Assembly: GCA_964615995.1 (NCBI GenBank)
Contig: CAZTSR010000011.1
Location: forward strand, 11,228 to 75,227
Length of the DNA: 64,000 nt
Direction: 5' to 3'
DNA from: an uncultured Bacteroidales bacterium
GTDB taxonomy: Bacteria > Bacteroidota > Bacteroidia > Bacteroidales > UBA10428
The translations under genes and the position numbers were made by a program. The notes under the pieces are model-generated. The model made no database searches, was not told the origin of the DNA, and was given only the letters and a program-made list of their open reading frames with translations. How positions within the stretch are numbered: the stretch's first letter is position 1; every line of letters begins with the position of its first letter. Shown piece after piece: positions 5,253 to 23,200 of the stretch.

Positions 5253-5270
5253 TCACAATCAATAAAAGTG

Positions 5271-7127
5271 TTATGCTGTCTCCAGCAAATCTGCCTCAAC
5301 GCGCAGGTTTTCAATAATAAAGTCCTGCCGCTCCGGGGTATTTTTTCCCATGAAAAAAGGAAGGATGTCCTGAACATGATCGCCTTTTTTCACACGAACA
5401 GGCTCGAGCCTGATATCTTTGCCAATAAAATGGCCAAACTCAGATGGCGAAATTTCTCCCAGGCCTTTAAACCGGGTGATTTCCGGGTTTGCGCCCACTT
5501 TCTTCAAAGCTGTTTCCTTTTCCTCATCACTGTAACAGTAGAAGGTCAGTTTCTTATTTCTAACACGGAACAGTGGTGTTTGCAAAATATAGAGATGCCC
5601 CTGTCTTACCAGATCCGGAAAAAACTGGAGGAAAAACGTCATCATAAGCAACCGGATGTGCATACCGTCTACATCGGCATCTGTGGCGATCACAATGTTG
5701 TTATACCGAAGGTTATCCAATCCGTCTTCTATATCCAAAGCAGCCTGAAGAAGGTTGAATTCCTCGTTTTCGTATACAATTTTTTTCGTCAGTCCGAATA
5801 CATTCAGAGGCTTTCCCTTCAGACTAAATACCGCTTGTGTAGCCACATCCCGGGTAGTGGTAATGGAACCACTGGCAGAGTCACCCTCAGTAATGAAAAG
5901 TGTGGATTCAAGCCGGCGCTCATGGTTGTCTGTCAGATGAATTTTGCAGTCGCGGAGTTTGCGGTTATGCAGACTTGATTTTTTTGCCCGCTCACGTGCC
6001 AGCTTTTGAATTCCCGATATGGCTTTCCGTTCTTTTTCCGATTCAATAATTTTCTTCAGCAGGATATCTGCGGTTTCTGAATGCTTATGAAGATAATTGT
6101 CGAGATGTTTTTTAAGAAAATCAGTAATGTAATTCCTAATGGATATGCCGTCGGGCGTCATTTCACGTGAGCCCAGCTTTGTTTTGGTTTGTGATTCAAA
6201 TACAGGTTCTTCTACTTTGATGCTCAGGGCAGCAATAATGGAAGTCCGGATATCAGAAGGATCAAAATCCTTTTTGTAAAATTCACGGATGGTTTTTACC
6301 AGGGCTTCCTTGAAAGCAGCCAGGTGCGTTCCGCCTTGTGTGGTGTGCTGTCCGTTTACAAAAGCGTAATATATCTCACCATATTGACTTCCATGTGTCA
6401 TGGCCAGTTCAATATCCTCGTCCTTAATCTGGATAATCGGATACAAACCGTCGCCATTCACGTTCTCGCGCAACAAATCTACCAGTCCTTCTTTTGAATA
6501 ATAAGCAGTTCCATTGAGATATATGGTAAGGCCTGAATTCAGGTACACATAATTCTTAATCATGGCTTCCACATAATCATCCAAAAACCTGAAGTGTCCA
6601 AACATCTTGGGATCAGGGAGGAAAGAAACCAGGGTTCCGTTTTTGGCATCTTCCGTGATTTCAGGATGGTCTGTTTGTATATTGCCTTCAGAAAAGCTGA
6701 TGGCTTTTACTTTGCCTTCGCGAAAGGATCTAATTTCAAAAAATGATGAAAGCGCATTCACGGCTTTGATACCCACGCCATTCAATCCAACCGATTTCTT
6801 AAAGACCCTGGAATCGTATTTTGCACCTGTGTTCATTTTGGATGCAACATCCAGCACCTTACCCAACGGAATGCCTCTTCCGTAATCCCTTACTTTTACA
6901 ATATTTTCGTTAATGGTAATTTCAATGGTCTTCCCATAACCCATCATGTACTCATCAATGGCATTATCCAGTACTTCTTTCAGCAATACATAGATTCCAT
7001 CGTCCTGGGATGAACCATCACCCAGCTTTCCGATATACATGCCGGGACGCTTCCGGATGTGCTCTTTCCAGTCAAGTGTGCGGATGGTATCTTCGGAATA
7101 ATTGGCAGTAGTCATACCCGTCATCAA
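5271..7127 (-). CDS. parE: type IIA topoisomerase subunit B, most likely topoisomerase IV ParE
   Basis: 618-aa ORF with the GHKL ATPase motifs ([31 protein letters not shown]) and the Toprim block LFITEGDSA...[12 protein letters not shown]. The size fits ParE rather than GyrB. Several Met codons near 7127..7115, so the exact start is uncertain. Confidence 0.75.
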
Positions 7128-9522: not shown

Positions 9523-9879
9523 ATCATTGGGCTCATCATCCCCCGAAGAACCTAGAGGTTCAAGTATATCAAACTGTGCCGGTGGCGGTACTTCCTGTTC
9601 AGAACCAGATGACAGATCAATTTTCCATGCCTTGAGATCGGTATACCATTTGCCATTGAATTCACGGGATTCGGCATTAAACGAAACATTTACCATAACA
9701 CCAGGCTTAAGCGATTTGACAACCGCAGTTTTGTCTCCCCATGCAGAAAAACACACTTTACGCGGGTATTGTTCCTGTGTTTCAATGATGAAATCCTGTT
9801 TCATCCATTGTCCGTTTTTTCCGGTTCCGGTCTGCTCCGGTAACACGAGAACCACTTTTCCTGAAATATCAAGTGCCAT
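9511..9879 (-). CDS. DUF3127-family small OB-fold-like protein
   Basis: 122-aa ORF. The N-terminal GKVVLVLPEQTGTGKNGQWMKQDFIIETQEQYPRKVCFSAWGDK pattern is what I recognise as DUF3127. Its 3' end overlaps the aroK 3' end by 12 nt in convergent orientation. Confidence 0.65.
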   Translation of the reverse strand: MALDISGKVVLVLPEQTGTGKNGQWMKQDFIIETQEQYPRKVCFSAWGDKTAVVKSLKPGVMVNVSFNAESREFNGKWYTDLKAWKIDLSSGSEQEVPPPAQFDILEPLGSSGDDEPNDLPF

Positions 9880-10035
9880 AACGTTAGAATTTTTAGATAA
9901 TTATGCGCTTAAAAGTAGAAATAAAAAGGCAATTAATAAGAGCAATAAAGCACAATTCAATCATTTCTCAAAGATGCTTCCGTCAATCAATTTGGATCGT
10001 ACGTGTAAATTCGTTCGTATATCTCAATAATTTAG

Positions 10036-10098: not shown

Positions 10099-13000
10099 AT
10101 GAAAAAATCTTTCTTGGGGGTTCCCTTTTACAACCGTCAGGAAGTAACTTTGGTACTTCTGGTATCTATTCTTGCATTGCTGCTGGGTGCCTTTTTTTCT
10201 CTGTTTTCCATTGGTGCACATGTGCTGTTTTTGCAATCCTGGAAACCTGAACAACTTCCCCAGGCATTTATCATATCCGGGATTTTTGGAGCCGGATTCT
10301 TTTCTGCATATGGTGCCTTGAGCAGCCGGATGGGCTTCCGCAGGGTTTCTTTTCTGTTCCTTTTTGTTATTGCTGTAATTTGCGTCTCTTTATTCTTTTT
10401 CCATGATTATCTGATCGGGGTTCGCGTATTCGGTCTTTCATTGATGCTGCCTTTTACCCTGTGCATGCCGTTTACTTTTTTCATCGCAGTGTTTTTCCGG
10501 AGATTCACACTTCATGTATTCACCCCTTATCAGCACAGACGTTTTAATCCCATCACACGCGCCGCCTTTGTTGCAGGAATCATCGGATCGGGCTATTTGT
10601 TAGTACTCGCCCTTTTCATTTCATGGGACATATTGTATATTTTGGCATTAGATGCCATACTTATCTTTACAGCTATCCTGGTTTATATGATACTGAACCG
10701 GTTCAGGAAGAAGGCATCTTTTAAACACGTTCAGAGTAAAAGGGTTGCACCTTTGCGCTCCCGGTTCTATGAGCTTTTTTATACACGTTATACTTTATTA
10801 CTGCTGGGTTTTGTGGTGCTTTCCGCATTGATTGGTTTTATCATCCATTTTCATTTTGTACGCGAAACGCGGTTAAATTACCCCGACACCATAGGACTGG
10901 CAAAGTTTTTTGGCTTTTTCACCGGAACTATGTTTTTTTTCGTGTTCAGCGTTGAGCGGTTATTAGTTCGGAAAATTCTTTATGCATACGATTCTCCCTA
11001 TAGTTTGGTCATTGTTCCTGTGGTGATGATTCTGGCATCTGTCGCTGCCCTGATTGTTGACTTGCTGGTCGGACAATCGAATGCCATAGCAAGGTTTTCT
11101 TTCGGATTTCTGATGGTTGCCATGATGAAAATCGGTTATGAAACCACATTTGACGCCATTGAAATCCCTTCGTTACGTGTACTCTACAGAACCCTTGATC
11201 TGAGATTTTTAACCTCCATCAAACCCAGGCTGGAGGGTTCCTTCCGGATGGTATCACTTGTAATTGCAGGGTTGCTGATCAGCGGCTTTATGTTTATGAA
11301 TCTGAACCGAAGTTTGCATATAAATTTAATGATTCTGGTTTTGACCCTGATATGGTTTCCATTAGGCATTTTTCTGGTAAAAGCATATCAGGACGCACTC
11401 CGTGAATACATTCGAAGACTTCGGGCAAGTAAAAGGACAATCCGTCAGGACACCCAGAATATTGATGAAAAATCACATGCGCTCATTAACAACAATGATC
11501 CCTATAAATCCATCAATACATTATCTGTTATTGAAAGGCTTGAACCATTGACTCATCAGAAACACCTGGCATCGTTGCTTAAAACGGAATCCGTTCCACT
11601 CAAAAAATACCTGCTTGAACGCATTGATAGCAATGCATTATTTAGTTTTCTGCCTAATCTGAAAGAGCTTCAAATATCAGATCTTAAGCAGCAAAATGGC
11701 AGCCTGTCAAAGATCATCAATCGTTTTGAAATTAAGATCAATGCCGGCAGTACAAAAATGGCACTTGAAAATCTGGTAAATTCAAATACACTTACCGACA
11801 GGATATTGGCTGCTGAAATCATCGGAAATAGTGATATTAAGGGGTATGCTCCCTATCTGCTTCAGTTATCACGCGATTTTGAGCCCGAGGTAAAACTGGC
11901 TTCGATTAAGGCCATGGCGCGACTGGGGAACTCAAATCACAGTCATGTTTTAATCGGATTTCTTACCACTTCTGTTTACTATCCTTATGCCTTTGAAGCC
12001 TTGGTGAAAATTGGGGAACCCGCTATTCCGTTCATGGAAGAGTGTTTTCTTTTGCCCGACGTGGAAGATATTCTGCTCCTGAGAATTGTAAGAATTTACG
12101 GAAAAATCGGAACCCAAACAGCTATTGATGCCCTGCTTGCAAAAATTGAAAACCAGAATCGTGCTGTTTCCCGTCAGTCGATGCTTGCTCTTAAAGAGGC
12201 CAAATTTCAATCATCTCCCGCCAACATAAACCGTATTCTAAATGACATTGTGCGCCTCATCAATGTTATGTCATGGAATTTCGGAGCCTATGCAAGTATT
12301 AAAAACAATCCTCATTTTGAAATGCTTCAGGAGGCCTTGTCCGAGGAACTATCCGACAATTATGAAACTCTTTACAACCTGCTTTCGCTTGCATATAATT
12401 CTACATCAATCGGGAATATCAAGCAAATGCTGAATGAGGGGAATGATACGGATATCAGTTTTGCCATTGAACTGCTTGACCAGATTGTAAATGAAGAAAT
12501 CAAGCAGGTGTTTTTCCCTGTGGTTGAAAACATTCCGGTAAATGACCGGTTTAAACAATTACAGTATTTTTTCCAGGGCATAAAAGAAGACCCTGAAAAT
12601 CTGATACAGGACATTATTACGAGGGACTTTAATCAGATATCCCTGTATGTAAAGGCTTGCGCCCTATACAGTATACTAAAGCTTAACTCAAAACAACCCG
12701 GACAAGAGGTGATTTCCAGTATATTTCATCCAAACATGTTAATTATGGAAACAGCGGCCTTTGTGGTTCACTCGCTTCAGCCGGAAATGCTTGATTCGGT
12801 ATACGACCGCCTTCCCAGGGAAAAAGTTAATGACATTAAGTTGTCATTAAGTAAAATCCACGATGGAATACCCTTCTTATTACTCGACCGTATTCATTTT
12901 ATAAGATGCTGCGAACTGCTCAGGAATATCTCAGAAGATATTCTTATTGAGATATCAAGAGCCCTGGTGGTTCATCAGATGAAGGCCGATGAAGAATTTC

Positions 13001-13263
13001 TGATAAAACGTGAAGATGTACACTTTGCATTTATGATTATCATCGATGGTATGGCCCAAATCAATATTTCTTCAGGCAAAGTATCTACCTTTGTGAAAAA
13101 TGATATAATTTACAGCGATATTTTGGTAGAGGATAACACTTATTTGCTTAAGGCACTTACTGATCTGAAATTTTACAGTCTTGAACAGGAAGTTCTTAAC
13201 GCACTGATGTTCGATCACATTGAATTTAGAGATGCTGTTCTTGAAATTATTGAAGAATCATAA
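10099..13263 (+). CDS. polytopic membrane protein (~12 TM, MFS/TLC-transporter-like) fused to HEAT-like repeats and a C-terminal cNMP-binding-like domain
   Basis: 1054-aa ORF. About 12 hydrophobic helices by eye in aa 1-430, with a K/R-rich N-terminus. An alpha-solenoid region around aa 560-700 (ILAAEIIGNSDIKGYAPYLLQLSRDFEPEVKLASIKAMARLGN...) looks like HEAT repeats. The last ~130 aa follow the CAP/cNMP beta-roll pattern (FLIKREDVHFAFMIIIDGMAQINISSGK...), but the phosphate-binding cassette is degenerate. Confidence 0.55.
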   Translation: MKKSFLGVPFYNRQEVTLVLLVSILALLLGAFFSLFSIGAHVLFLQSWKPEQLPQAFIISGIFGAGFFSAYGALSSRMGFRRVSFLFLFVIAVICVSLFFFHDYLIGVRVFGLSLMLPFTLCMPFTFFIAVFFRRFTLHVFTPYQHRRFNPITRAAFVAGIIGSGYLLVLALFISWDILYILALDAILIFTAILVYMILNRFRKKASFKHVQSKRVAPLRSRFYELFYTRYTLLLLGFVVLSALIGFIIHFHFVRETRLNYPDTIGLAKFFGFFTGTMFFFVFSVERLLVRKILYAYDSPYSLVIVPVVMILASVAALIVDLLVGQSNAIARFSFGFLMVAMMKIGYETTFDAIEIPSLRVLYRTLDLRFLTSIKPRLEGSFRMVSLVIAGLLISGFMFMNLNRSLHINLMILVLTLIWFPLGIFLVKAYQDALREYIRRLRASKRTIRQDTQNIDEKSHALINNNDPYKSINTLSVIERLEPLTHQKHLASLLKTESVPLKKYLLERIDSNALFSFLPNLKELQISDLKQQNGSLSKIINRFEIKINAGSTKMALENLVNSNTLTDRILAAEIIGNSDIKGYAPYLLQLSRDFEPEVKLASIKAMARLGNSNHSHVLIGFLTTSVYYPYAFEALVKIGEPAIPFMEECFLLPDVEDILLLRIVRIYGKIGTQTAIDALLAKIENQNRAVSRQSMLALKEAKFQSSPANINRILNDIVRLINVMSWNFGAYASIKNNPHFEMLQEALSEELSDNYETLYNLLSLAYNSTSIGNIKQMLNEGNDTDISFAIELLDQIVNEEIKQVFFPVVENIPVNDRFKQLQYFFQGIKEDPENLIQDIITRDFNQISLYVKACALYSILKLNSKQPGQEVISSIFHPNMLIMETAAFVVHSLQPEMLDSVYDRLPREKVNDIKLSLSKIHDGIPFLLLDRIHFIRCCELLRNISEDILIEISRALVVHQMKADEEFLIKREDVHFAFMIIIDGMAQINISSGKVSTFVKNDIIYSDILVEDNTYLLKALTDLKFYSLEQEVLNALMFDHIEFRDAVLEIIEES

Positions 13264-13268
13264 GAAGA

Positions 13269-14726
13269 ATGAGTTTTGAACAAGACATATTTATAGCATT
13301 TGCTCCGTCATCCGGCAATGAAAACCAGGTAACTGCTGCCTGGACAGCAAAATTTTGTGAATATTTCAGTGTCTTAATGAACCGGATTGGAGAAAAGCAA
13401 CCAGTCATTCTTCTGCATGACGATTTGCGCGTGAGGCAGTCTGTTCTGGGTGATAATCCCGGCAGTGTTTATTCTAAAACCGGTGTTTACATAGTCATCC
13501 TTTCACCTGAATATGTAAAATCCAAAACATACATGAAAGAATTAGAGGACATGTATGAATGGATTGAACGCGAAAATGGCACATCCAAAAAACAACACCG
13601 GATATTTAAGGTTTATACCCAACCCTTAACTGCCAATGAACAACCTGCCTTTTTAAAAAACGAGTTGAGCTACGATTTTTATGAAATAAACAGATATAAC
13701 AAAAAGCCCGTCACATTTGAAACGGTTGTCAAAGACAACCCCAATGAGAAATTCTGGTCGAAACTTGTAGATTTAGCTTATGATATCTCCGATGTGCTTA
13801 ACAATCTTTCAGGTTTGTCGGAAAAAAAAGCAGAAACGCCAATGCCCTCCGTGTTTCTGGCTGAAACAACCTTTGACCAAACCGAAAATCGCGACCGGCT
13901 CAAACGGGAATTACAATATCTGGGATACCATGTTTTGCCAGCCTTGCCATTGCCTGATGATGCTGAGCATGCAAAACAAGCCATTGAAAAATGCCTGGAT
14001 GAATCTGTTGTAACCATCCATCTTTTGGGAGCCTGGTATGGTGATTTTATCAAAAACTCCAAGTTGTCATCCATCGATTTTCAAATTAAAACGGTAAAAG
14101 ATTACATTGCGGCTAAAGATAAAATCCATAAACCTTATCAGATCATCTGGATACCCAACGATATTAAACCTACTGATCAAAGACAATCTCTTTATCTGAA
14201 AAGGCTTCAGAGAGATGAAGCACAATATCTTACTGAAATTATAGAAACGCCCTTTGAAGTATTCAAAACCATTTTAAATACCCGGCTGGCCGATCTTTCA
14301 AATCCCAAAAACAAACCTCTGGCTGAAAAGAATAAGCTTTATGTGATTTATGAAAAATCATCGGAAGCTGTATTTGCAGAATATAATGAAATCATGCGCA
14401 AAAGAGGTTTTGAAGTTCTGCTGCACAACAGTAACGGGGAGGACTTTTTCCCATTATCAAGCCATATCAATAATCTGTTATGTGCAGATGCTGTTCTGAT
14501 ATATAAAGGAAATAGCACCATGGAATGGTTGAACAGCAAAATCCGGGATCTGGTAAAAACACCCGGTTTTGGTAAAAATAAGTCTTTCAGGGCTATAGAA
14601 ATTATTTCAACGCAAAAAACTGCTGATAAATCCATGCTGTTTTTAAAGAATGTTCCTGTAAACTGGGATGAAGAAATAAATACCGATGTGGTGAACCATT
14701 TTTTAGATTCTCTGGTAAAGAAATGA
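13269..14726 (+). CDS. soluble protein with three tandem TIR-like / DUF4062-like modules
   Basis: 485-aa ORF with no signal peptide or TM. Module 1 (aa 1-180) has DIFIAFAPS...VILLHDDL...VYIVILSPEYVKSKTYMKELEDM, which follows the TIR pattern (DvFiS...vvlSp.y..S.WC..EL) and keeps the Glu. Module 2 (aa 194-340) has VFLAETTFDQTENRDRLKRELQYLGYHV...HLLGAWYG, resembling DUF4062. Module 3 (aa 356-485) is TIR-like without the Glu. The gene starts 5 nt after the upstream stop. Confidence 0.6.
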   Translation: MSFEQDIFIAFAPSSGNENQVTAAWTAKFCEYFSVLMNRIGEKQPVILLHDDLRVRQSVLGDNPGSVYSKTGVYIVILSPEYVKSKTYMKELEDMYEWIERENGTSKKQHRIFKVYTQPLTANEQPAFLKNELSYDFYEINRYNKKPVTFETVVKDNPNEKFWSKLVDLAYDISDVLNNLSGLSEKKAETPMPSVFLAETTFDQTENRDRLKRELQYLGYHVLPALPLPDDAEHAKQAIEKCLDESVVTIHLLGAWYGDFIKNSKLSSIDFQIKTVKDYIAAKDKIHKPYQIIWIPNDIKPTDQRQSLYLKRLQRDEAQYLTEIIETPFEVFKTILNTRLADLSNPKNKPLAEKNKLYVIYEKSSEAVFAEYNEIMRKRGFEVLLHNSNGEDFFPLSSHINNLLCADAVLIYKGNSTMEWLNSKIRDLVKTPGFGKNKSFRAIEIISTQKTADKSMLFLKNVPVNWDEEINTDVVNHFLDSLVKK

Positions 14727-17700
14727 CAGAAAACCCGATTCGAAATATAAAAACCAATACGTATACCCTGGCGAACCCGTTCCCGGGACTTCGTCCATTC
14801 AGTGTGGATGAAAGCCACCTGTTTTTTGGCCGCGAAGGACAATGTGAAATTGTATTGAGCTATCTGGCCAAAAACCGGTTTGCGGCAGTTACAGGAGCTT
14901 CAGGCAGTGGAAAATCATCGTTGATTTATTGCGGTCTGATTCCGGCATTATATGGAGGTTTCATTACCAATGCCGGTTCAAAATGGAGGATTATCACTAC
15001 ACGGCCTGGTAACAGTCCGGTTGAGAACCTGGCTGAAGCCATTGCTGATAACGATATAGCAGGCAAAAAAGAAACCGACCTTCCACTGCATAAACAAATT
15101 ATTTATACGCTCCTTCGCAGAAGTTCTTTTGGATTGGTCGACGCAGTGAAGCAAATCAAGCTCAATCCGGGCGAAAATATATTGTTGATCCTTGACCAGT
15201 TTGAAGAACTCTTTCGTTTTAAGGAAAGCCGCAAAGATATTACTGTGGTTAACGAGACGGAAGCGTACATTAAAATGCTTGTAAATGCCATCCGGCAAAA
15301 AGATCAGCCTATCTATGTAGTGCTTACGATGCGGTCGGATTTTATCGGAGAATGTTCTCAGTTCCAGGAACTCACCAGGCTTATTAATAAAAGCAATTTT
15401 CTGATACCGCAGATGACCCGGGACGATTTCAAGGAAGCTGTTACAGGTCCATTGGCCGTTGGCGGAGCTGAGATTGATCCCCTTTTGCTTCAGCATCTGC
15501 TCAATGCCATTGAGGATAAAAATGACCAGTTACCGGTTTTGCAGCATGTGATGATGCGTACCTGGGAATTCTGGACACGCAGCAACGAGATTAACGCTCC
15601 CTTACGCATGCGTGATTATGAAGTAGCAGGAAGAATAGAGAATGCATTGTCAATGCATGCTAATGAAGCTTTTGAAGAACTCACTGAAGAAGGAAAGATC
15701 ATTTGCAAAGCGGTTTTCCGTTGCCTTACTGAAAAAGGAACAGACAATAAAGGTACGCGGCATCCTGCCACCGTCCGACATATTGCAGAAATTGCCCAGG
15801 TATCCGATCAGAAAGTAATTGATGTAGTAAGCAAGTTCAGAGCCAAAGGGCGGTCTTTTCTTACCCCGGGTGACGACGTTCAAATTGATACAGATACCGT
15901 GATTGATATATCCCATGAAAGCTTGATGCGTATCTGGGATAAACTGAAATCATGGGTTGATGAAGAATTTTCTTCCGTTCAAATGTATTTAAGACTGGCT
16001 GAAGCTTCCTCCCAGTATCAGGTAGGAAAAACCGGACTCTGGCGTCCTCCCGACCTGCAATTGGCACTCAACTGGAAGAAAACTCAAAAACCTACACTCG
16101 CATGGGCCAGAAAATACAATCCGGCTTTTGAAAAGGTCATGGTATTTTTGGATGCCAGTGAGAAAAAATTCCAGCAGGAAGAACAAAACAAAGTGCGCCT
16201 GCAACGCATGGAACTGAATCGTACCCGAAAATTTGCTGTTTCCTCCCTGCTTGCTGCTGTCGCTTTTCTGTTTATTTCAGTTTGGGGCTTCCAGCAACGT
16301 GCAGATGCCATTAAACAGGCACGCGAGGCTGAATCGTCAAGAGATGAAGCTGAATACAGAAAAAAAGAAGCCGACAGTCTGCGTGTAATTGCTGAAGGAA
16401 GTGCCACACAAGCTAACATTGAAAAATGGATGGCACAGATGAATGCTGATTCTTCTGAAAAAGAAAAGACCCTGGCTTATCTGCAATCCAAAGTTGCTGA
16501 ACAGGAAATGCAAATTGCCTACCAACAAGCAGAAGAAGCGGCCATAAAGAGCGCAACCTTCCGAAAGGAGAAGGAAGAAGCTGAAAAAACTGCCGAGCAT
16601 GCTATTGAACAACAATCAGTTACTGAGCGCGAGAAAATTCAGGAACTTAAAAAGAAAATGCTTTCCATTGCGCAGACCGTTGCTGTAAAATCCATACAGG
16701 CGGAAGACAGAAACCTGAAAGCTCTTCTGGCCTATCAATCTTATATTTTTAACCGCGACTATGACGGTCAATCCGATCATCCTGACACATACAATGCTCT
16801 GTATGGTGCCTTATGTGCATTTAACGGAGAAAATTACAATAACTTATCCGGACATATTGGTTCCGTGAAATCCATCGCTTTTCTTCCTTCATCCAACATA
16901 TTTTATAGTTCCGGCGTAGATGGCAAAATTTTGCGCTGGGATTTGGGAAGCAATGTGAAATCATACCGTACACTCATCAGCAACCCGTTTAACCGGTGTA
17001 TGGCCATTAGTCCAAATGGCCGGTGGCTTGCAAATGCAACTCCCACCTCAGGAATCCAGCTCTTTAATCTCAATACCAACAACCAGCCCGAATTGCTTCA
17101 GGGACATAAAAGCTGGATTGGCGTTCTGGCATTTACGCCTGACAGCAAGGGCCTGTTTTCTGCAAGTAATGACAAAACCATTATGTACTGGGATCTTGTA
17201 AACGGAGGAAATTCACAATTTATCTCTTTGCCTACAACCACCGTAAGATGTCTGGCTGTTTCCCCTGTGGGAAGATATCTTTTCGGAGGCACAGACGACG
17301 GCCGTCTGATTCGCTGGAATATCGATACCAAAGAAGAAACTGTGCTCTTCAGATCCGATAAAAACACCATATTTTCTATTGCTATTAATTCCACGGGTTC
17401 CCGACTGGCTTTTGTCGATAAAAATGGTTCCTTGCGCATTTTGGATGCGAGAAATAACAACATCATACGGACAATTGCTGCCCATTCCGTTCGTATTATG
17501 GATGTTAAATTCAGTCCGGACGATAAGCAAATTGCAACGTGCAGCTGGGATAAAACTGTTAAAATCTGGGATGCCATTAACTTAGGCAACAGGCCGATTA
17601 CCATTAACAAACATGAAAAATGGGCGCTGTCTGTAGCTTTCAGTCCCGATGGGAAATATCTGATTTCATCAGGTGAAGATGGCAAAATATACTATTGGCC

Positions 17701-17824
17701 TGCTCATGCCTCACAAATGGCCGACCAGATGTGCGGCAGAACAAACCGAAACCTGACCCAGCGGGAATGGGAATCCTATATCGGATATGATATCAACTAC
17801 CAAAAAACCTGTTCTAACAAATAA
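14723..17824 (+). CDS. STAND-type P-loop NTPase - TM helix - coiled coil - 7x WD40 protein
   Basis: 1033-aa ORF. Walker A is AVTGASGSGKSSL, preceded by FFGRE, and Walker B is ILLILDQFEELF. One hydrophobic helix (FAVSSLLAAVAFLFISVWGF, nt ~16231-16293) has R/K clustered on its N-side. A coiled coil of ~150 aa rich in E, K, A and Q follows, then seven WD40 units (GH...WD-type), then a RNLTQREWESYIG tail. The start overlaps the upstream stop (ATGA at 14723-14726). Confidence 0.75.
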   Translation: MTENPIRNIKTNTYTLANPFPGLRPFSVDESHLFFGREGQCEIVLSYLAKNRFAAVTGASGSGKSSLIYCGLIPALYGGFITNAGSKWRIITTRPGNSPVENLAEAIADNDIAGKKETDLPLHKQIIYTLLRRSSFGLVDAVKQIKLNPGENILLILDQFEELFRFKESRKDITVVNETEAYIKMLVNAIRQKDQPIYVVLTMRSDFIGECSQFQELTRLINKSNFLIPQMTRDDFKEAVTGPLAVGGAEIDPLLLQHLLNAIEDKNDQLPVLQHVMMRTWEFWTRSNEINAPLRMRDYEVAGRIENALSMHANEAFEELTEEGKIICKAVFRCLTEKGTDNKGTRHPATVRHIAEIAQVSDQKVIDVVSKFRAKGRSFLTPGDDVQIDTDTVIDISHESLMRIWDKLKSWVDEEFSSVQMYLRLAEASSQYQVGKTGLWRPPDLQLALNWKKTQKPTLAWARKYNPAFEKVMVFLDASEKKFQQEEQNKVRLQRMELNRTRKFAVSSLLAAVAFLFISVWGFQQRADAIKQAREAESSRDEAEYRKKEADSLRVIAEGSATQANIEKWMAQMNADSSEKEKTLAYLQSKVAEQEMQIAYQQAEEAAIKSATFRKEKEEAEKTAEHAIEQQSVTEREKIQELKKKMLSIAQTVAVKSIQAEDRNLKALLAYQSYIFNRDYDGQSDHPDTYNALYGALCAFNGENYNNLSGHIGSVKSIAFLPSSNIFYSSGVDGKILRWDLGSNVKSYRTLISNPFNRCMAISPNGRWLANATPTSGIQLFNLNTNNQPELLQGHKSWIGVLAFTPDSKGLFSASNDKTIMYWDLVNGGNSQFISLPTTTVRCLAVSPVGRYLFGGTDDGRLIRWNIDTKEETVLFRSDKNTIFSIAINSTGSRLAFVDKNGSLRILDARNNNIIRTIAAHSVRIMDVKFSPDDKQIATCSWDKTVKIWDAINLGNRPITINKHEKWALSVAFSPDGKYLISSGEDGKIYYWPAHASQMADQMCGRTNRNLTQREWESYIGYDINYQKTCSNK
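16850..17701 (+). repeat. seven WD40 repeats (protein level) of the STAND NTPase
   Basis: Units begin GHIGSVKSIAF, NPFNRCMAISP, GHKSWIGVLAF, TTTVRCLAVSP, DKNTIFSIAIN, AHSVRIMDVKF and KHEKWALSVAF. They end in RWD, FNL, YWD, RWN, ILD, IWD and YYW. Confidence 0.8.
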
Positions 17825-17830
17825 ACTGTA

Positions 17831-18880
17831 ATGCCTTATTCAATAATCCAAAAAACCGGCCTCGTGATCGTGCTGATTCTATGCCTGAATTGGATATGGA
17901 CTTTGCCGGCCTGCGCTCAGAATGACTGCTCTACCAAAATTCAGGAGGCACAAAAGTACTATGAACAAGGTATGATTGATGAAATCCCGGCCATGCTCGG
18001 CCCGTGTATGCAGGATGGCTTTACCCGCACGCAAAAAATTGAAGCATATAAGCTGGTTATCATGTCCTATTTGCTTGATGACGATCAGTTTGAAGCGGAA
18101 CGTACCATGCTGGAATTTCTGAAGAAATATCCCGAATACGAAATCATGCCAAATGATCCCGTCGAATTTGTATATCTTTTTGAATCCTACCGGACAGCAT
18201 CTGTGTTTTCCTTTGGTATCACAGGAGGTTTGAATTTTACCGATCCCCGGATTATTGAACCTTACTCTACATCCGATCTCAATACAGCAGACCTGAAGAA
18301 TACCATGCGCGGAGGATTTCAGTTTGCACTGGGAGTCGAGCGGTACCTTAACCGTAAATTTTTGCTCAATCTTGAATTAGCATTTGCAACCAATCAATAT
18401 CAGTTTACTGATAAAATATCCACTCCTGCAAACAGCAGTACTGTGAAATACCAGGAAAAAATTGTCAAGCTGGAATTGCCCCTGACGGTTGCTTATGAAT
18501 TTACAATCAAACAAACACATCTTTTTGCCAGGGCTGGCTTTTCTGTGGCCCATCTTTCAAAGGTCACCGGGGAACCCTCGCGTGAAACTCCCGGAAATAA
18601 TCAGACCGGTGCCGATCTGGATATGTCCGGCTACCGGAAAAGCATGCTATATAGCGGGATTGTTGGTGCCGGCGTACGCTATAAAGTTCCAAGAGGAATT
18701 CTCCTTGTGGATCTCAGAGCGAATCTGGGCCTGAACAATATTGTTAAATCCGAAAAGCGGTATCAAAATCCGGAATTATACAACAAGTATTTTTATCTGG
18801 ATGATGACTTCGCCCTGAATACGTTTTCGCTGTCAGTAGGATATTATTTTTCATTTTATAGCCCCCGTAAACAACGCTGA
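17831..18880 (+). CDS. outer-membrane beta-barrel protein with an N-terminal helical (TPR-like) domain
   Basis: 349-aa ORF with a signal peptide (...LNWIWTLPACA-QND). The first ~90 aa after it are helical, the C-terminal ~220 aa alternate hydrophobic and polar residues like barrel strands, and a terminal strand reads FSLSVGYYF. It starts 6 nt after the upstream stop. Confidence 0.55.
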   Translation: MPYSIIQKTGLVIVLILCLNWIWTLPACAQNDCSTKIQEAQKYYEQGMIDEIPAMLGPCMQDGFTRTQKIEAYKLVIMSYLLDDDQFEAERTMLEFLKKYPEYEIMPNDPVEFVYLFESYRTASVFSFGITGGLNFTDPRIIEPYSTSDLNTADLKNTMRGGFQFALGVERYLNRKFLLNLELAFATNQYQFTDKISTPANSSTVKYQEKIVKLELPLTVAYEFTIKQTHLFARAGFSVAHLSKVTGEPSRETPGNNQTGADLDMSGYRKSMLYSGIVGAGVRYKVPRGILLVDLRANLGLNNIVKSEKRYQNPELYNKYFYLDDDFALNTFSLSVGYYFSFYSPRKQR

Positions 18881-18882
18881 TT

Positions 18883-20061
18883 ATGAAAGTCCTCCATTTA
18901 TTCTGCATATGTCTGTTCATCACTCTGGTTTTTGCCTGTGATAAAGAAGAATTGTCCGATGCCCAATCTGAGAAGTTTGTTAAATATTATGCGAACTTCC
19001 CTGAATATACTGCTGCCGACGTAATCAACTATGAATCAGGATACGCTGTTTTGGGAACTGCTTTAACCGCTGATACCACAACACAAATTTGTCTGATCCT
19101 CACAGATGCTGAAGGAAATTCTATTGGCCAGGAAAAAGTATATGGAAGAGAGAAGAATGACCGTGCATATTGCTTAAAATCTTTGCCTGACGGTGGTTTT
19201 GTTATTATGGGGTCTTCTCAGCACCCCATTACTGATAAGCTTGAAGTAATGGTGATTAAAATCAACCGTGATGGAGAGCCGGTTTGGACACGCTTTATTT
19301 CTGAAGCCGGACAGAATGTAGAAGCTAAAAAGTTTGCTATTGGTGATAACGGCGCGATATACCTTGCCGGATATTGTTCCACAGCCGAAAAATCAAAAGA
19401 AATTTGGGTTTTTGCAATTAATTCAAATGGCAATGATTTATGGACGTCATCCAGAACTTTTGGCTACCAATGGGATGATGAAGCAGCATACCTGGATATA
19501 CTGGAAGATGGCGACTTATTAATGACAGGATACGTTACTCCAAATGGCACTGTAAATAATGCTTATTTGCTTAAAACCGACGCTGAAGGCAGCCTTGAAG
19601 CCTTTTTGCCCCTGATCTCAGTAGAAAATAAAGAAGGTTGTTCTGTAATTGCCCTGAATAACAACGATTTTCTTGTGCTAAGCACGCGTTCTGTCGGAGG
19701 TTACCAGGATATTGCCCTTGACATGATCGACTACGGCAATATGACCACAGTATGGACGCAAACTTATTTATCAGCAGCTGAAAATGAAATCAGCAAGGGC
19801 CTCATTCATTCCAACAATAAATACTATATCCTGAGTACAAAGAGTCCAAGTATTTCCAAATCTGTCATTTCCATCGTTACTGCTGATGCGGCAGGGAATA
19901 AACTTTCTGTAAACGATTTTGGATTGTCAACAGCATTGACCGCTTCTTCATTTCAAACAACCTCTGATGGAGGATTTATTATTGCCGGTACAAATGAAGT
20001 AAGCGAAGAGAACAATACTGCTCTTGCGCTTATTAAAACCAATGCAGCGCTGGGACTATAA
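18883..20061 (+). CDS. lipoprotein with ~7 repeated beta-propeller-like blades
   Basis: 392-aa ORF with a signal peptide and a plausible lipobox (LVFAC-D). Blade cores recur about every 45-50 aa: GYAVLGTA, GGFVIMGSS, GAIYLAGY, GDLLMTGY, DFLVLSTR, KYYILSTK, GGFIIAGT. It starts 2 nt after the upstream stop. Confidence 0.5.
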   Translation: MKVLHLFCICLFITLVFACDKEELSDAQSEKFVKYYANFPEYTAADVINYESGYAVLGTALTADTTTQICLILTDAEGNSIGQEKVYGREKNDRAYCLKSLPDGGFVIMGSSQHPITDKLEVMVIKINRDGEPVWTRFISEAGQNVEAKKFAIGDNGAIYLAGYCSTAEKSKEIWVFAINSNGNDLWTSSRTFGYQWDDEAAYLDILEDGDLLMTGYVTPNGTVNNAYLLKTDAEGSLEAFLPLISVENKEGCSVIALNNNDFLVLSTRSVGGYQDIALDMIDYGNMTTVWTQTYLSAAENEISKGLIHSNNKYYILSTKSPSISKSVISIVTADAAGNKLSVNDFGLSTALTASSFQTTSDGGFIIAGTNEVSEENNTALALIKTNAALGL

Positions 20062-20172: not shown

Positions 20173-20285
20173 TACTTAGTATGGAACTCATGCCCATATG
20201 GTTATAATCTGAGGATTGTTCCATCTGACAAGTTTTCAACCGAACCTGAAATATCATGTCTAACACGCTGCCTGAACCGTTCACT

Positions 20286-23200
20286 ATGAAAAATTTCTAT
20301 ACCCAAAAAGTTGTTTTGTCTGTGATTCTCATTTCCGGGATGGCCCTTTGTGCTCAAAGTCAGTCGACTGTTGCTGCTGATGACGACTATGAGATGGAGG
20401 AAGGATCAGAACTTACAATTTCGGCCCCGGGTGTACTGGAAAACGACCTGTCTGAATTCTCATTAACAGCACATCCTGTATCTGAACCATCGCATGCTAA
20501 TGCTCCGTTCATTCTACAGGAAGACGGCTCTTTTGTATACCAGCACGATGGATCTGAAACTACGTCCGATGCATTTCAATATACAGCTTATGACGGCATA
20601 GAAGAAAGTGCCCCTGCCACTGTCAATATACAGATTATTCCGGTAAATGATGCCCCGCAGATTTCAGACATTCCTGATGTTACCACTAATAAAGGTGAAG
20701 AATTTGCTGTCATTGAGCTCGACAAGCTGGTAACTGATGCCGAGAACGATCCCGCTGACATGTCATGGACTGTTAACAGTACCGTAGACCTGGATGTATC
20801 TGTTGATGAGGAAACTCATTTTGCCAGCATTGACGTTCCATCTGAATCCTGGACAGGTTCTGAAACCATTACATTCACAGTTACAGATACCGAAAATGGT
20901 ACCGATTCTGATGAAGCAACTTTTACAGTGCTGAATGTGAATGCTCCTCCGGGCAATCTTTCTCTAAGTTCACACACACTGGATGAAAATGCACCTCCTT
21001 CTACCATCATTGGGAATCTTTCAGCAACAGATCCTGATGTGGGTGATGTCATCATTTTTTCACTCCCTGCAGGGGTACTGGACAATAATCTGTTTAACCT
21101 GAATGCCAATACAGGCGCACTCAGAAAGAATGTCAGTGCTGATTATGAAAACATAAAAACCTATACCGTAAGGGTTAGGGCAACAGATGCCATAAATGAA
21201 TATTCAGAGGCCGATTTTATCATTTCCATTACCAATGTGAATGAAGCACCGACCAACCTGACATTAAGCAACTCTTCGATTAATGAAGGCCTGCCGGCAC
21301 ATTCTGTAGTAGGTTCCTTTACAATCACGGATCCGGATGTCGGCGATCCTCATATGATTGTATTTACTGCAGGTGGTGCTGATAACAATAAATTTAATAT
21401 TGAAGGCAGCAACCTGACTACCAGTCAACCCCTTGACTTTGAATCTGATCCCTCGTTGCAAATTGAACTTTCAGTATCTGACTTGCAAGGTCTGAGCATT
21501 ACAAAGCAATTTAACATTACAGTTCTTGATGTTGCCGATGCCCCTACTGATATTTCGCTTTCACCTAATACAATTGCTGAGAATCAACCCATCAACACGT
21601 TAGTTGGCACACTGAGCAGCACCGATCCGGATGCCGGTGAAACATTTACCTACACTTTTGCTTCAGGTGGCGCAGATAATGCATCATTCAATATATCCGG
21701 AAACCAGTTACGGTCCAGCGCCATTTTTAATTTTGAAGCTGTAAGTTCCTATGTCATCAGAATCCGGACGACAGACAGCCAATCAAATTTCTTTGAAAAG
21801 GATCTTACCATAACCATTACCAACGTATTTGAAAAACCCACAGACATAGCACTGTCATCTGCTTCAATCGCTGAAAATCTTCCAGCCGGTACCGCGGTAG
21901 GGACGCTTACGGCAACCGACCCTGACATGTTTGAAACATTCACTTTTTCGCTTCCGTCCGGAACCCCTGACAATGCTTTCTTTACGATTTCCGGAAACGA
22001 ATTGCGCACTGCTGCGAAATTCGATTATGAAACCCTGCTGCCAAGCCACTCCTATTCAATCAATATCCGCTGTACAGACAACAACTCCCAATTTTTTGAC
22101 AAAGCATTTACCATAAATGTTACCGATGTAAATGAAGGAGTTGCTTCCATCACCGGAGGAGGAACCTTTTGCGCCGGAGCAGCTATGACCATCACGCTGA
22201 ACATTTCCGGAGGTAACGGCCCGTTTAATCTCACACTTACCCGCACACTGAGTACTTCCAATAAGGATACTTCCATAACATCGATCGGCACCCTGCCTTA
22301 TAATATCATTGTCCGGATTCCTGGGACCTATACCATTAAGGCTTTAACCGATAAGGATAACAACCCCGGTACATTTTCATTAACTCCGGTAGTTCTGGTG
22401 CAAAACCCCAGGGCAAAAGCCATACTTACGCCTGTTACCCAGGCTATTTGTAAGGATGGTGTATCTCTGGCAACGCTGCATGTGAATTTTACAGCTGGTG
22501 TTGGCCCTTACCAGATTAAAGTGCAAAGGGGCAATAATGCTTCAAATGATACTACCATTACCAGGGCTGCTGATTTTGATTTTCATTCGCGGGTGTTCGA
22601 CAACACCATTACCAGGCACCGGATCATTCAAATTCTGGATAAGGACAATTGTGCAGGGGATACAACAGGATCAGGCACTGCGTTGGTTTCATACAAGGCA
22701 TCTCCTGTTGCCACTATTTCAGGGACTGCCACCATTTGCCCGGGAGCCAGCACGCCGCTTACCATTACGCTTCAGGGAACTGCCCCGTGGAATATTGCAT
22801 ATCGCAAGGATGCCGGCAGCCCTCAGACCATTACCAATATTCAAACTTCACCGCATACTCTGAATGTTAATTCAGCCGGGCGATATACTTTATATTCAGT
22901 ACAGGATGCATCGTGTACAGGCACTGTTAGTGGCGAGGCCGTAATTACTGCCAATATTGTTCCGGTTGCTACCTTAAGCGGTAGCGCTACCATTTGTGAA
23001 CATACCACTGCAAATCTGAGTCTGGCTATTACAGGCTCTAACAGCCCCTGGAAGTTTTATTATAAATTAAATTCCGGAGATTCCATTATTGTGGATGGTA
23101 TTGGAACCAGTCCTGCTTCCATCCCGGTTTCTAAAGCAGGTAATTATTCGGCACTGAAAATTGTCGACAAAAACAATTGTGTGGGAACAGTTTCAGGGAA

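Follow-up and report, generated by a model that had tools for sequence, protein, structure and literature searches.

A predicted trans-envelope STAND NTPase with a WD40 propeller and a TIR-like partner, encoded in a conserved operon of Bacteroidota

Gene C, which lies in a 64,000-nucleotide stretch of DNA from an uncultured Bacteroidales bacterium (GenBank assembly GCA_964615995.1, contig CAZTSR010000011.1; the whole stretch is hereafter called the window), encodes an NTPase of the nSTAND1 type that is followed by a single transmembrane (TM) helix, a helical stalk and a seven-bladed WD40 propeller. As judged mainly from sequence comparisons, the protein is very likely oriented with its N-terminal NTPase in the cytoplasm and its C-terminal half, stalk and propeller, outside the inner membrane. 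It is the third member of a tight string of five genes, A to E, and the translationally coupled gene B, which codes for a TIR-like protein and was missed by the initial annotation of the window, is its most constant partner. With moderate confidence, we propose that gene C encodes a trans-envelope receptor, which probably arose by domestication of a mobile module of the immune type.

The open reading frame (ORF) was found as the initial annotation had described it, with 1033 aa, an ATG start and a location on the plus strand, and gene C is present in a single copy within the window. The profile PF20703 (nSTAND1) matches aa 19-434 with an E value of 5.5e-90 (303.2 bits against a cutoff of 27.1) and is covered from position 1 to 373 of its 379 positions. 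With only 18 residues in front of this module, C has no N-terminal effector or adaptor domain. The Walker A motif GASGSGKSS (aa 58-66) and the Walker B motif LLILDQFEELF (aa 154-164) are indeed present as had been noted, and G58-S66 as well as D158-F164 are invariant in 47 orthologs. The NTPase module retains 53% identity in the most distant orthologs. The juxtamembrane helices that follow it (aa 435-503) are the most conserved of all regions of C; their identity is 88% in near orthologs, 65% in middle and 56% in far ones.

An AlphaFold2 (AF2) model of C, calculated from an alignment of 47 orthologs, has a mean pLDDT of 74.9. It contains one unbroken helix from aa 468 to 534 that runs through the hydrophobic segment, more helices up to aa 701, the propeller and two short C-terminal helices after it. 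All seven WD40 blades that had been predicted are seen in the model, as 28 strands between aa 707 and 993 with a pLDDT mostly above 90, and Pfam models of WD40-type propellers match at about aa 746-1018. The propeller is a canonical WD40 domain; in Foldseek searches the closest structure was the WD40 domain of PkwA (TM-score 0.90), and Apaf-1 could be aligned with the full model over about 1080 columns. In the search with the full model propellers dominated the matches, which gave nothing informative on the nucleotide-binding oligomerisation domain (NOD) or the stalk. A sequence profile of C compared with the sequences of the PDB matched only WD40 proteins (2ymu) and the WD40 domain of Apaf-1, and NCBIfam has no family for the proteins A, B or C.

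The hydrophobic helix on which the predicted topology hinges is real. It has the sequence FAVSSLLAAVAFLFISVWGF at aa 504-523, with an uncharged core that extends over aa 504-525, and 19-residue Kyte-Doolittle (KD) windows above 1.6 are found in C only at starts aa 502-506, with a peak of 2.13. A rough sum on the Hessa scale is -0.14. On the N-side, RLQRMELNRTRK (aa 492-503) holds four Arg and one Lys, as had been claimed, and the 15-residue N-flank contains 6-7 K/R and 0-1 D/E. The C-side had been called net acidic. This is correct for aa 525-705, which carry a net charge of -7, but the first 15 residues past the helix are neutral (3 K/R, 3 D/E) and the C-terminal half has a net charge of +3. 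We collected 120 orthologs of C with 57-96% identity from metagenome-assembled genomes (MAGs) of Bacteroidales, and in all 119 that were scored for the helix its hydrophobicity is kept (KD 1.8-3.3), despite a varying sequence (FAVSSLLAAVAFLFISVWG, FAAVSVVIAVLVMALLFVV, FALSMAGVLFFVVMLLFIV). The identity within the helix is only 22-43%, and in all, its hydrophobicity is conserved in 267 homologs. Such a free drift of sequence at constant hydrophobicity argues for a helix that faces lipid, unlike a buried helix.

The first 560 residues of C were also compared with 1.84 billion representatives of 50%-identity clusters. Altogether, 43,086 clusters matched the NTPase half at E ≤0.001, and the best 150 of them, 38-55% identical to the query, were inspected. 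A helix is present at aa ~475-570 in 149 of these 150, nearly always at 485-527 and directly after the NTPase module; the one exception scores a KD of 1.58 at the same place. The statement of the initial annotation that the family is broader was right, and understated, and the helix is indeed carried by homologs in other phyla, for example in relatives from Acidobacteriota. The charge bias is likewise general. In 148 representatives the 15-residue N-flank has on average 6.6 K+R versus 3.2 in the C-flank, the N-flank has more K+R than the C-flank in 95.9% of the representatives and in 100% of the orthologs, and the net charge in distant representatives is +4.7 on the N-side versus +0.3 on the C-side (about +5 versus about 0 to +1 over both sets). 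The median length of the uncharged core is 22-23 residues (23 in the 148 representatives), with a range of 19-28.

What follows the helix in these relatives is in most cases a repeat array. WD40 repeats were detected by phmmer in 107 of the 150 representatives, and a Pfam scan of 39 others revealed six further WD40 proteins and mostly TPR arrays in the rest of those scanned. In one acidobacterial relative (P0222, Pyrinomonadaceae) the helix is followed by a murein endopeptidase domain, Peptidase_M74 (MepA), which is a hallmark of periplasmic proteins. The periplasm has no supply of ATP, and the NTPase domain must be cytoplasmic. Conservation of the helix, charge bias, side of the NTPase and the domains past the helix together make an orientation with the N terminus inside and the C terminus outside by far the most probable one, as the initial annotation had predicted from the single sequence, and the co-variation described below agrees with it. 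In one relative (P0125, L092:4528-7944) the membrane layout differs: the nSTAND1 module is preceded by four predicted TM helices and followed by a single one near the C terminus. This relative, too, has a TIR_2 gene upstream.

The stalk (aa 526-667) comprises 142 residues, of which 65% are A/E/K/Q/R and only 0.7% Pro or Gly. AF2 models it as two helices (aa 538-572 and 578-659). Its sequence is only ~25% identical between distant orthologs. Its length, by comparison, is 139 +/- 5 aa in 79 orthologs and falls into classes of 122/123, 136/137, 143/144 and 150/151 residues, that is, into seven-residue steps, and these classes recur in 49 representative clusters. Insertions and deletions of whole heptads are characteristic of coiled coils in which both register and length are important, and the stalk is thus probably a coiled coil that acts as a heptad-quantised 'ruler'. 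The initial annotation had assumed a coiled coil of ~150 aa; the helical nature and a length fixed in sevens are in line with this, but the heptad signal of the sequence is weak. With ~137 residues and 1.5 Å per residue the stalk would be ~20 nm long if extended. This is close to the width of the Gram-negative periplasm. Breaks near aa 535, 575 and 660 are possible fold-back points, and the model is compatible with an extended as well as a folded stalk.

Behind the propeller, the tail motif RNLTQREWESYIG is located at aa 1009-1021, and related tails are present in many relatives of the same clade, including distant members of the WD40 type. A strict regular expression of the motif matched 78 of the 120 orthologs and 26 of the 150 cluster representatives. 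The initial annotation had linked the motif to other WD40-STAND proteins, which is borne out within the helix-bearing clade to which the comparison was confined. Two cysteines of the tail, C1004 and C1030, show no variation in alignment A1, and in 79 orthologs they are conserved to 91-92%. The pair would be compatible with a disulfide, but we do not count it as evidence for a periplasmic location.

Gene C is embedded in a tight gene string. Gene A ends at 13263 and gene B starts at 13269, the stop codon of B overlaps the start codon of C (ATGA), gene D starts 6 nt after C and gene E 2 nt after D. A scan for this locus, with one genome per species, yielded at least 595 loci. The best 80, which were inspected, are nearly all from Bacteroidota, namely Bacteroidales, Cytophagales (Fulvivirga, Chryseosolibacter, Ohtaekwangia, Ekhidna, Sporocytophaga and others) and Flavobacteriales; a small number are labelled differently (Thiohalospira, Chloroflexota, MAGs of Roseobacteraceae). 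The full-length identity of C across these 80 loci is 38-79%. Neighbours were counted in 84 loci. Gene D is directly downstream of C in 80 of them, gene A upstream in 69 and gene B upstream in 65, and where D, A or B is missing this is largely due to contig ends. Similarity to gene E is detectable in 41 of the 84 loci; in 5 of 16 listed loci a gene of ~400 aa that has no tblastn similarity to E occupies its position.

The surroundings of the operon are those of a chromosomal core region. The synteny with aroK and an Asp/Lys-tRNA synthetase gene is kept in several genomes, and the window has genes for EPSP synthase, topoisomerase IV-like proteins (parC/E-like), a tRNA synthetase, cargo proteins of the type IX secretion system (T9SS) and cytochrome bd oxidase in the flanks. 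No mobile or defence genes were seen among the genes annotated in the first 35 kb of the window. PADLOC applied to A-E connected only C to a system, mad8, by a 14-bit P-loop match with an E value of 0.0057, and returned nothing for the other four. The distribution is not the patchy one of a mobile defence island, since the gene order is conserved across three orders of Bacteroidota. Conserved synteny, housekeeping flanks and the lack of a meaningful PADLOC match lead us to regard the locus in the window, on genomic grounds, as a vertically inherited core operon and not as a defence island.

Some features of the operon and its neighbourhood vary. Between A and B, two loci have an extra gene for a HAMP-SpoIIE (PP2C phosphatase) protein of ~670 aa (L018:3593-5599 and L025:3390-5408), and the same insertion was found in nine more (L021, L022, L024, L027, L047, L048, L053, L058 and L072), which fits a signalling role for the operon. 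In the window, a 167-aa ORF with a TTG start and without a Pfam match lies between aroK and gene A (9527-10030), and two large genes for T9SS cargo (cadherin/Ig/PKD, Por_Secre_tail) follow the operon (20256-25529 and 25610-27808). Similarity to T9SS cargo is found downstream in 16 of the 84 loci, but this may be mere synteny.

Gene B codes for a protein with a TIR_2-like domain (aa 1-181), a DUF4062/NIR-like domain (aa 194-344) and a third TIR-like domain (aa 356-484). DUF4062, recently renamed NIR, is a TIR-like NADase and an effector in Avs2, Swarozyc and Evangelion, and DUF4062-NACHT-WD40 proteins are found in humans as TEP1 and NWD1 (preprints of 2026 including bioRxiv 10.64898/2026.05.01.722283 and 10.64898/2026.09.04.749371). 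The B protein of the window reaches 20.5 bits with PF13271 and thus stays below the cutoff of 24.7, but an ortholog (L081) is above it (25.4) and has both TIR_2 and DUF4062 above the Pfam cutoff; several orthologs in the databases carry precomputed matches to PF13271 and PF13676. The AF2 model of B (pLDDT 80.6) consists of three beta-alpha domains, and TIR-1/SARM1, RPP1, MyD88 and PdTIR are among the top Foldseek matches in the PDB. A sequence search against the PDB gave only weak TIR matches (E 0.3-0.8) and no DUF4062 structure. In the first domain the TIR motif reads SKTYMKEL, with the Glu kept (E91), as it is in 15 of 36 B sequences. In the second, a conserved motif S-[IV]-[VI]-[DE]-x-Q-N (aa 267-273; loci L001-L089) stands at the presumed position of the catalytic Glu of 'E-Y' in active DUF4062 NADases, which suggests that this domain would be a conserved pseudo-enzyme or have an altered chemistry.

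The pair of B and C extends beyond the operon of Bacteroidota. Eight relatives from elsewhere, two of them from Acidobacteriota, were inspected, and in all eight the nSTAND1-TM gene is immediately preceded by a TIR_2/DUF4062 gene; in five of them the two genes overlap by 4 bp. The product of the TIR_2/DUF4062 gene has 364 aa in L089 and 486-526 aa in the other seven. None of the eight has A, D or E. With a TIR-like gene directly upstream of every outside relative inspected, B and C are best described, from gene order, as the core two-gene module that is presumably shared across phyla. The N-terminal TIR domain of B in L085-L088 keeps the motifs DxFISYAH and SEWCLxEL (SEWCLREL) including the catalytic Glu, and the shorter B protein of L089 is without the N-terminal TIR domain. 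In L089, perfect inverted copies of a 1414-nt insertion sequence (Transposase_mut) at 4401-5814 and 10361-11774 bracket exactly the B-like and nSTAND1-WD40 genes; the pair sits in a composite transposon. A PIN gene is near the pair in L091. The pair of L085 (Pyrinomonadaceae) has an LSDAT-SLATT gene upstream (4439-6196) and a TPR-CHAT gene downstream (12012-15140), and LSDAT-SLATT, a nucleotide sensor plus membrane effector, parallels the design of A with its cyclic nucleotide-binding (cNMP-binding) domain and membrane part. Altogether, the contexts of these relatives look like conflict systems.

Whether the two halves of C evolve with different partners was addressed by partial Mantel tests (2000 permutations) on pairwise distances per protein part in the 44 loci that have all four proteins. 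Gene product D follows the WD40 half of C when the NOD half is controlled for (partial r 0.60, p 0.0005), and the NOD half when the WD40 half is controlled for (partial r 0.21, p 0.0010). B follows the NOD half (partial r 0.76, p 0.0005) and has next to no correlation with the WD40 half (partial r 0.07, p 0.2). The respective values for the cytoplasmic part of A are 0.90 (p 0.0005) for the NOD half and 0.23 (p 0.0010) for the WD40 half. The evolutionary rates of B and of the cytoplasmic part of A are similar to that of the propeller, and yet both track the slow NOD, which argues against a simple effect of rate classes. The pattern is as expected if the halves of C occupy separate compartments with separate partners, and we regard it as supportive only.

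The other three proteins of the operon are membrane or envelope proteins. A profile of gene A was built from 29 orthologs and searched against the sequences of the PDB. In it, aa 64-427 match ADP/ATP carriers of the nucleotide transporter (NTT) family (9j3j, E 5.7e-20), aa 547-700 match HEAT repeats, and aa 926-1048 match the cNMP-binding domains of PKG (E 4.7e-27) and PycTIR. Pfam detects HEAT_2 in the A protein of the window, and HEAT_2 and cNMP_binding above cutoff in an ortholog (L030). Some NTTs transport NAD+. The order NTT, HEAT and cyclic nucleotide-binding domain (cNBD) is that of a family of fusion proteins (Major, Embley and Williams 2017, PMC5381601) that was described without a function and, in the parts of the paper that were searched, without a connection to STAND or TIR genes. 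Gene A has the same three parts, and its constant linkage to the STAND/TIR-like pair in Bacteroidota seems not to have been reported before.

The outer-membrane (OM) barrel and the propeller lipoprotein that had been placed immediately downstream of C are both there. D has an OMP_b-brl_2 barrel and an N-terminal hydrophobic, signal-peptide-like segment, which is present in 75 of 76 homologs; an assignment as PorT was rejected, as no PorT-type match was obtained and only the generic OMP_b-brl_2. The periplasmic N-terminal domain of ~90 aa is the most conserved part of D (mean distance 1.12 versus 2.08 for the barrel), and such a slow evolution is as expected for a protein-protein interface. At aa 30-120, D has two Cys (NDC...GPC) and a weak TssQ-like match, and this region evolves at about half the rate of the barrel. 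E has a lipobox, found in 28 of 38 homologs, and delta-60/SBBP repeats. Acidic residues follow the lipobox Cys in E and its homologs (CDKEE, CDNYD, CDDDY). We take them to resemble the export signal of Bacteroidota lipoproteins, and E may be surface-exposed.

Table 1. Positions of the five genes of the operon and of the parts of gene C in the window.
Feature	Position	Strand	Basis or remark
Gene A, polytopic inner-membrane NTT-HEAT-cNBD protein, 1054 aa	10099..13263	+	profile versus PDB, Pfam
Gene B, predicted cytoplasmic protein with three tandem TIR-like domains, 485 aa	13269..14726	+	Pfam, AF2, Foldseek
Gene C, predicted bitopic nSTAND1-TM-stalk-WD40 protein	14723..17824	+	1033 aa, ATG start
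nSTAND1 NTPase module of C, predicted cytoplasmic	14777..16024 (aa 19-434)	+	PF20703
Walker A of C	14894-14920	+	motif position, NTPase module
Walker B of C	15182-15214	+	motif position, NTPase module
Juxtamembrane helices of C, highly conserved	16025..16231 (aa 435-503)	+	end is the R/K-rich flank RLQRMELNRTRK, 16196-16231
Single TM helix of C	16232..16297 (aa 504-525)	+	Kyte-Doolittle, conservation
Helical stalk of C, predicted periplasmic, probable coiled-coil spacer	16298..16723 (aa 526-667)	+	AF2, length classes
Pre-propeller helices and seven-blade WD40 propeller of C, predicted periplasmic	16724..17704 (aa 668-994)	+	Pfam, AF2
C-terminal helical tail of C, motif C(1004)...RNLTQREWESYIG...C(1030)	17705..17821	+	conservation in alignments
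Gene D, outer-membrane barrel, OMP_b-brl_2	17831..18880	+	E 2.3e-17
Gene E, lipoprotein with delta-60/SBBP beta-propeller repeats	18883..20061	+	NCBIfam delta_60_rpt, Lepto_SBBP_lipo

How such a receptor may work can be outlined. The data establish the domain content, the conserved helix, the charge bias, the gene order and the co-variation, and from these we propose the topology, the contact with D and E, the direction of the signal and its output. The nSTAND1 module, as the part for nucleotide binding and oligomerisation, and the juxtamembrane bundle would be in the cytoplasm, one helix would cross the inner membrane, and the rigid stalk would keep the propeller on the periplasmic side, close to the outer membrane. 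There, the propeller would bind D and E or an envelope-derived ligand, or would be clustered by them. A fold-back of the sensor onto the NOD would not take place in this arrangement, and the signal would have to pass via stalk and helix; it may reach the juxtamembrane bundle (aa 435-503) by a change in the oligomeric state. The NTP-dependent assembly of NODs would then organise or activate the TIR-like domains of B, and A is a candidate for a nucleotide-responsive membrane output. In other phyla the B-C pair may be an immune receptor of the type of nucleotide-binding leucine-rich repeat (NLR) proteins and Toll-like receptors (TLRs), with an outward repeat sensor and sometimes mobile, and in Bacteroidota the pair would have been fixed in a vertical operon with A, D and E for envelope signalling.

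Several observations weigh against this proposal. WD40 and TPR_10/TPR_12 arrays are typical sensors of STAND proteins in the cytosol, and periplasmic examples of canonical WD40 repeats are seldom reported. In the stalk, Fourier analysis of the single sequence gave a weak and ambiguous 3.5-residue signal, and the AF2 confidence is low for aa 525-580. The co-variation values are inflated by shared phylogeny, as is usual in mirror-tree and partial Mantel analyses, and could reflect compartment-specific rates instead of contact. Gene B is truly absent from six of the longer loci (e.g. L028, L030, L057) and thus is not an obligatory output in these operons of Bacteroidota. Last, the TIR Glu is gone in most Cytophagales, and the inferred catalytic position of the DUF4062-like domain is a Gln (F196+76, Q272), where the equivalence is derived from spacing (Eva01 F11/E87, 76 residues) and from where the Pfam match ends, and not from an alignment with a proven NADase. 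This position is Gln in nearly all B homologs of all phyla, with Glu only in L035 and L039. Together with the loss of the TIR Glu in many Cytophagales this makes an output by a nucleotide signal uncertain.

The initial annotation had set C into the frame of NLR-like phage defence. This fits the relatives in other phyla, but is unlike the locus in the window with its housekeeping surroundings. If C were an active anti-phage receptor of an abortive-infection system, its periplasmic WD40 domain would sense, at adsorption or injection, a component of the phage or damage to the envelope, the NTPase would oligomerise, the TIR domain of B would deplete NAD+ or produce a signal, and A would thereby become a lethal effector at the membrane. 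The immune-like contexts of the B-C pairs elsewhere, with the TIR Glu, LSDAT-SLATT and TPR-CHAT, PIN and the composite transposon, speak for this, as does E91 at the canonical position of the TIR domain in the window; furthermore, Avs2, Swarozyc and related systems use DUF4062/NIR domains as NADase effectors, and the cNMP-binding domain of A is like that of Pycsar effectors (the PycTIR match). On the other hand, A-E have no meaningful PADLOC match, the order and the position next to aroK, the tRNA synthetase and the parC/E-like genes are conserved with no mobile or defence genes nearby, the window has a single copy, the inferred catalytic site of the DUF4062-like domain is a Gln, and the co-variation of D and E with the propeller suggests a self ligand. 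We therefore consider such a function unlikely for C. A purely structural role has to be weighed as well. As a TolA-like mechanical tether, C would set or measure the distance between inner and outer membrane with its stalk and anchor D and E, and the NTPase would control assembly only. An anchor, a long helix rich in A/E/K/Q and a C-terminal globular domain encoded beside genes for OM proteins would suit a tether, and so would a stalk whose length but not sequence is conserved and the vertical inheritance across the phylum. Such a role is nonetheless distinctly improbable, since the STAND switch of 500 aa, the TIR-like partners and the cNMP-binding domain are parts of signalling systems, the operon has no motor of the TolQR/ExbBD type, and the relatives in other phyla have B-C without D or E.

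There is finally the question of whether C is in the membrane at all. Sensors of the WD40 and TPR type are normally found in the cytosol, the helix of the query contains several Ser, Ala and Gly and has, with 2.13, a KD that is low within the family (and the rough Hessa sum of -0.14), and the AF2 confidence is moderate; the helix might then be buried or peripheral instead of membrane-spanning, with all of C in the cytoplasm as in canonical STAND proteins. This is very unlikely in view of the 19-28 uncharged residues with a conserved poly-basic N-side, the KD of 2.3-3.3 in most relatives, a hydrophobicity that stays while the sequence drifts, and the relative with a murein endopeptidase domain past the helix. 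A re-entrant hairpin would, in addition, need a longer segment. A trans-envelope receptor, probably of domesticated origin, is the explanation that we prefer.

Parts of this architecture are known from other systems. The nSTAND1 conflict NTPases have the same NTPase followed by WD40 or TPR repeats, but carry N-terminal effector-associated domains (EADs) or Death-like domains (Kaur, Burroughs, Iyer and Aravind, eLife 2021, PMC8195603). C has none of these and has instead a TM helix and a separate, coupled TIR-like gene. In that paper and in an earlier one (Kaur et al. 2020, PMC7159879), in which nSTAND1 is not defined, text searches revealed no mention of a TM helix for nSTAND1. Avs2-NIR and the human proteins TEP1, NWD1 and NWD2 share the parts TIR-like/DUF4062, STAND and WD40/TPR. 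These are single cytosolic polypeptides with an active Glu, whereas here B is split off and has a Gln at the inferred site; they have a NACHT or Avs NTPase, whereas C has nSTAND1 and a membrane between NTPase and repeats. Apaf-1 of the apoptosome has a NOD and a seven-blade WD40 sensor in common with C. Its WD40 domain folds back on the NOD within one compartment, which would be topologically impossible for C if the predicted orientation is right.

The suggestion that the topology seems unexplored agrees with the literature that was covered. A literature search on membrane-anchored or periplasmic STAND-WD40 proteins, with subscription journals largely outside its coverage, gave only one precedent for predicted periplasmic STAND sensors, the STAND/NACHT-CLec proteins associated with a diversity-generating retroelement (DGR) in Thiohalocapsa (Dore et al., PNAS 2024, PMC10907252). 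In these the sensor is a CLec domain that is diversified by the retroelement in few loci of one organism, and the nSTAND1 targets are predicted to be cytoplasmic; they are without WD40, fixed-length stalk and OM partners, all unlike C. The layout nSTAND1-helix-WD40 does not seem to have been described. Two further likenesses are functional analogies. Toll-like receptors have a repeat sensor outside, a single TM helix and TIR-type signalling in the cytoplasm, but their sensor and membrane parts are non-homologous, and the present system differs by the insertion of a STAND NTPase and by a TIR-like protein that forms a chain of its own. TolA/TonB and RcsF-OMP-IgaA are anchored in the inner membrane and reach an OM barrel or lipoprotein, and the stalk of C is A/E/K-rich like domain II of TolA. 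They lack homology to C, and the motor driven by the proton motive force or the phosphorelay of these systems has no counterpart here, where an NTPase switch is found instead. No Pfam or NCBIfam match to a C-terminal domain of TolA/TonB or to motor genes was obtained in the operon, and the likeness is architectural only.

It is tempting to go one step further and to see in C and its relatives a widespread class of receptors that combines the logic of TLRs and NLRs, with a WD40 or TPR sensor outside, a measured stalk, a helix, a STAND module and a tandem-TIR partner. In Bacteroidota this once mobile immune module would have been domesticated to form a trans-envelope pathway of the whole phylum, D and E would report on the cell surface and A would be gated via its cNBD. 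We put this forward as a tentative idea, which in its entirety is rather doubtful; if true, the output would gate an NTT-type nucleotide (ATP/NAD+) transporter through a cNMP-binding domain.

Several aspects go beyond the single gene. The data define an envelope operon of five genes that is conserved in Bacteroidota, cultured Cytophagales among them, and give a first genomic context for the NTT-HEAT-cNBD transporters and for the tandem TIR/DUF4062-like family. The contrast between versions that keep the catalytic TIR Glu and are mobile and those that are fixed and decaying offers a case in which the domestication of immune modules can be examined. Current models of STAND proteins and NLRs (Apaf-1, plant and animal NLRs, Avs) assume that sensor and NTPase touch in one compartment. 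If the predicted topology is true, the clade in which the two are split by a membrane, to which 149 of the 150 best-matching clusters belong, must use another principle of activation, closer to receptor clustering, and this would extend NLR-type surveillance to the periplasm or the cell surface.

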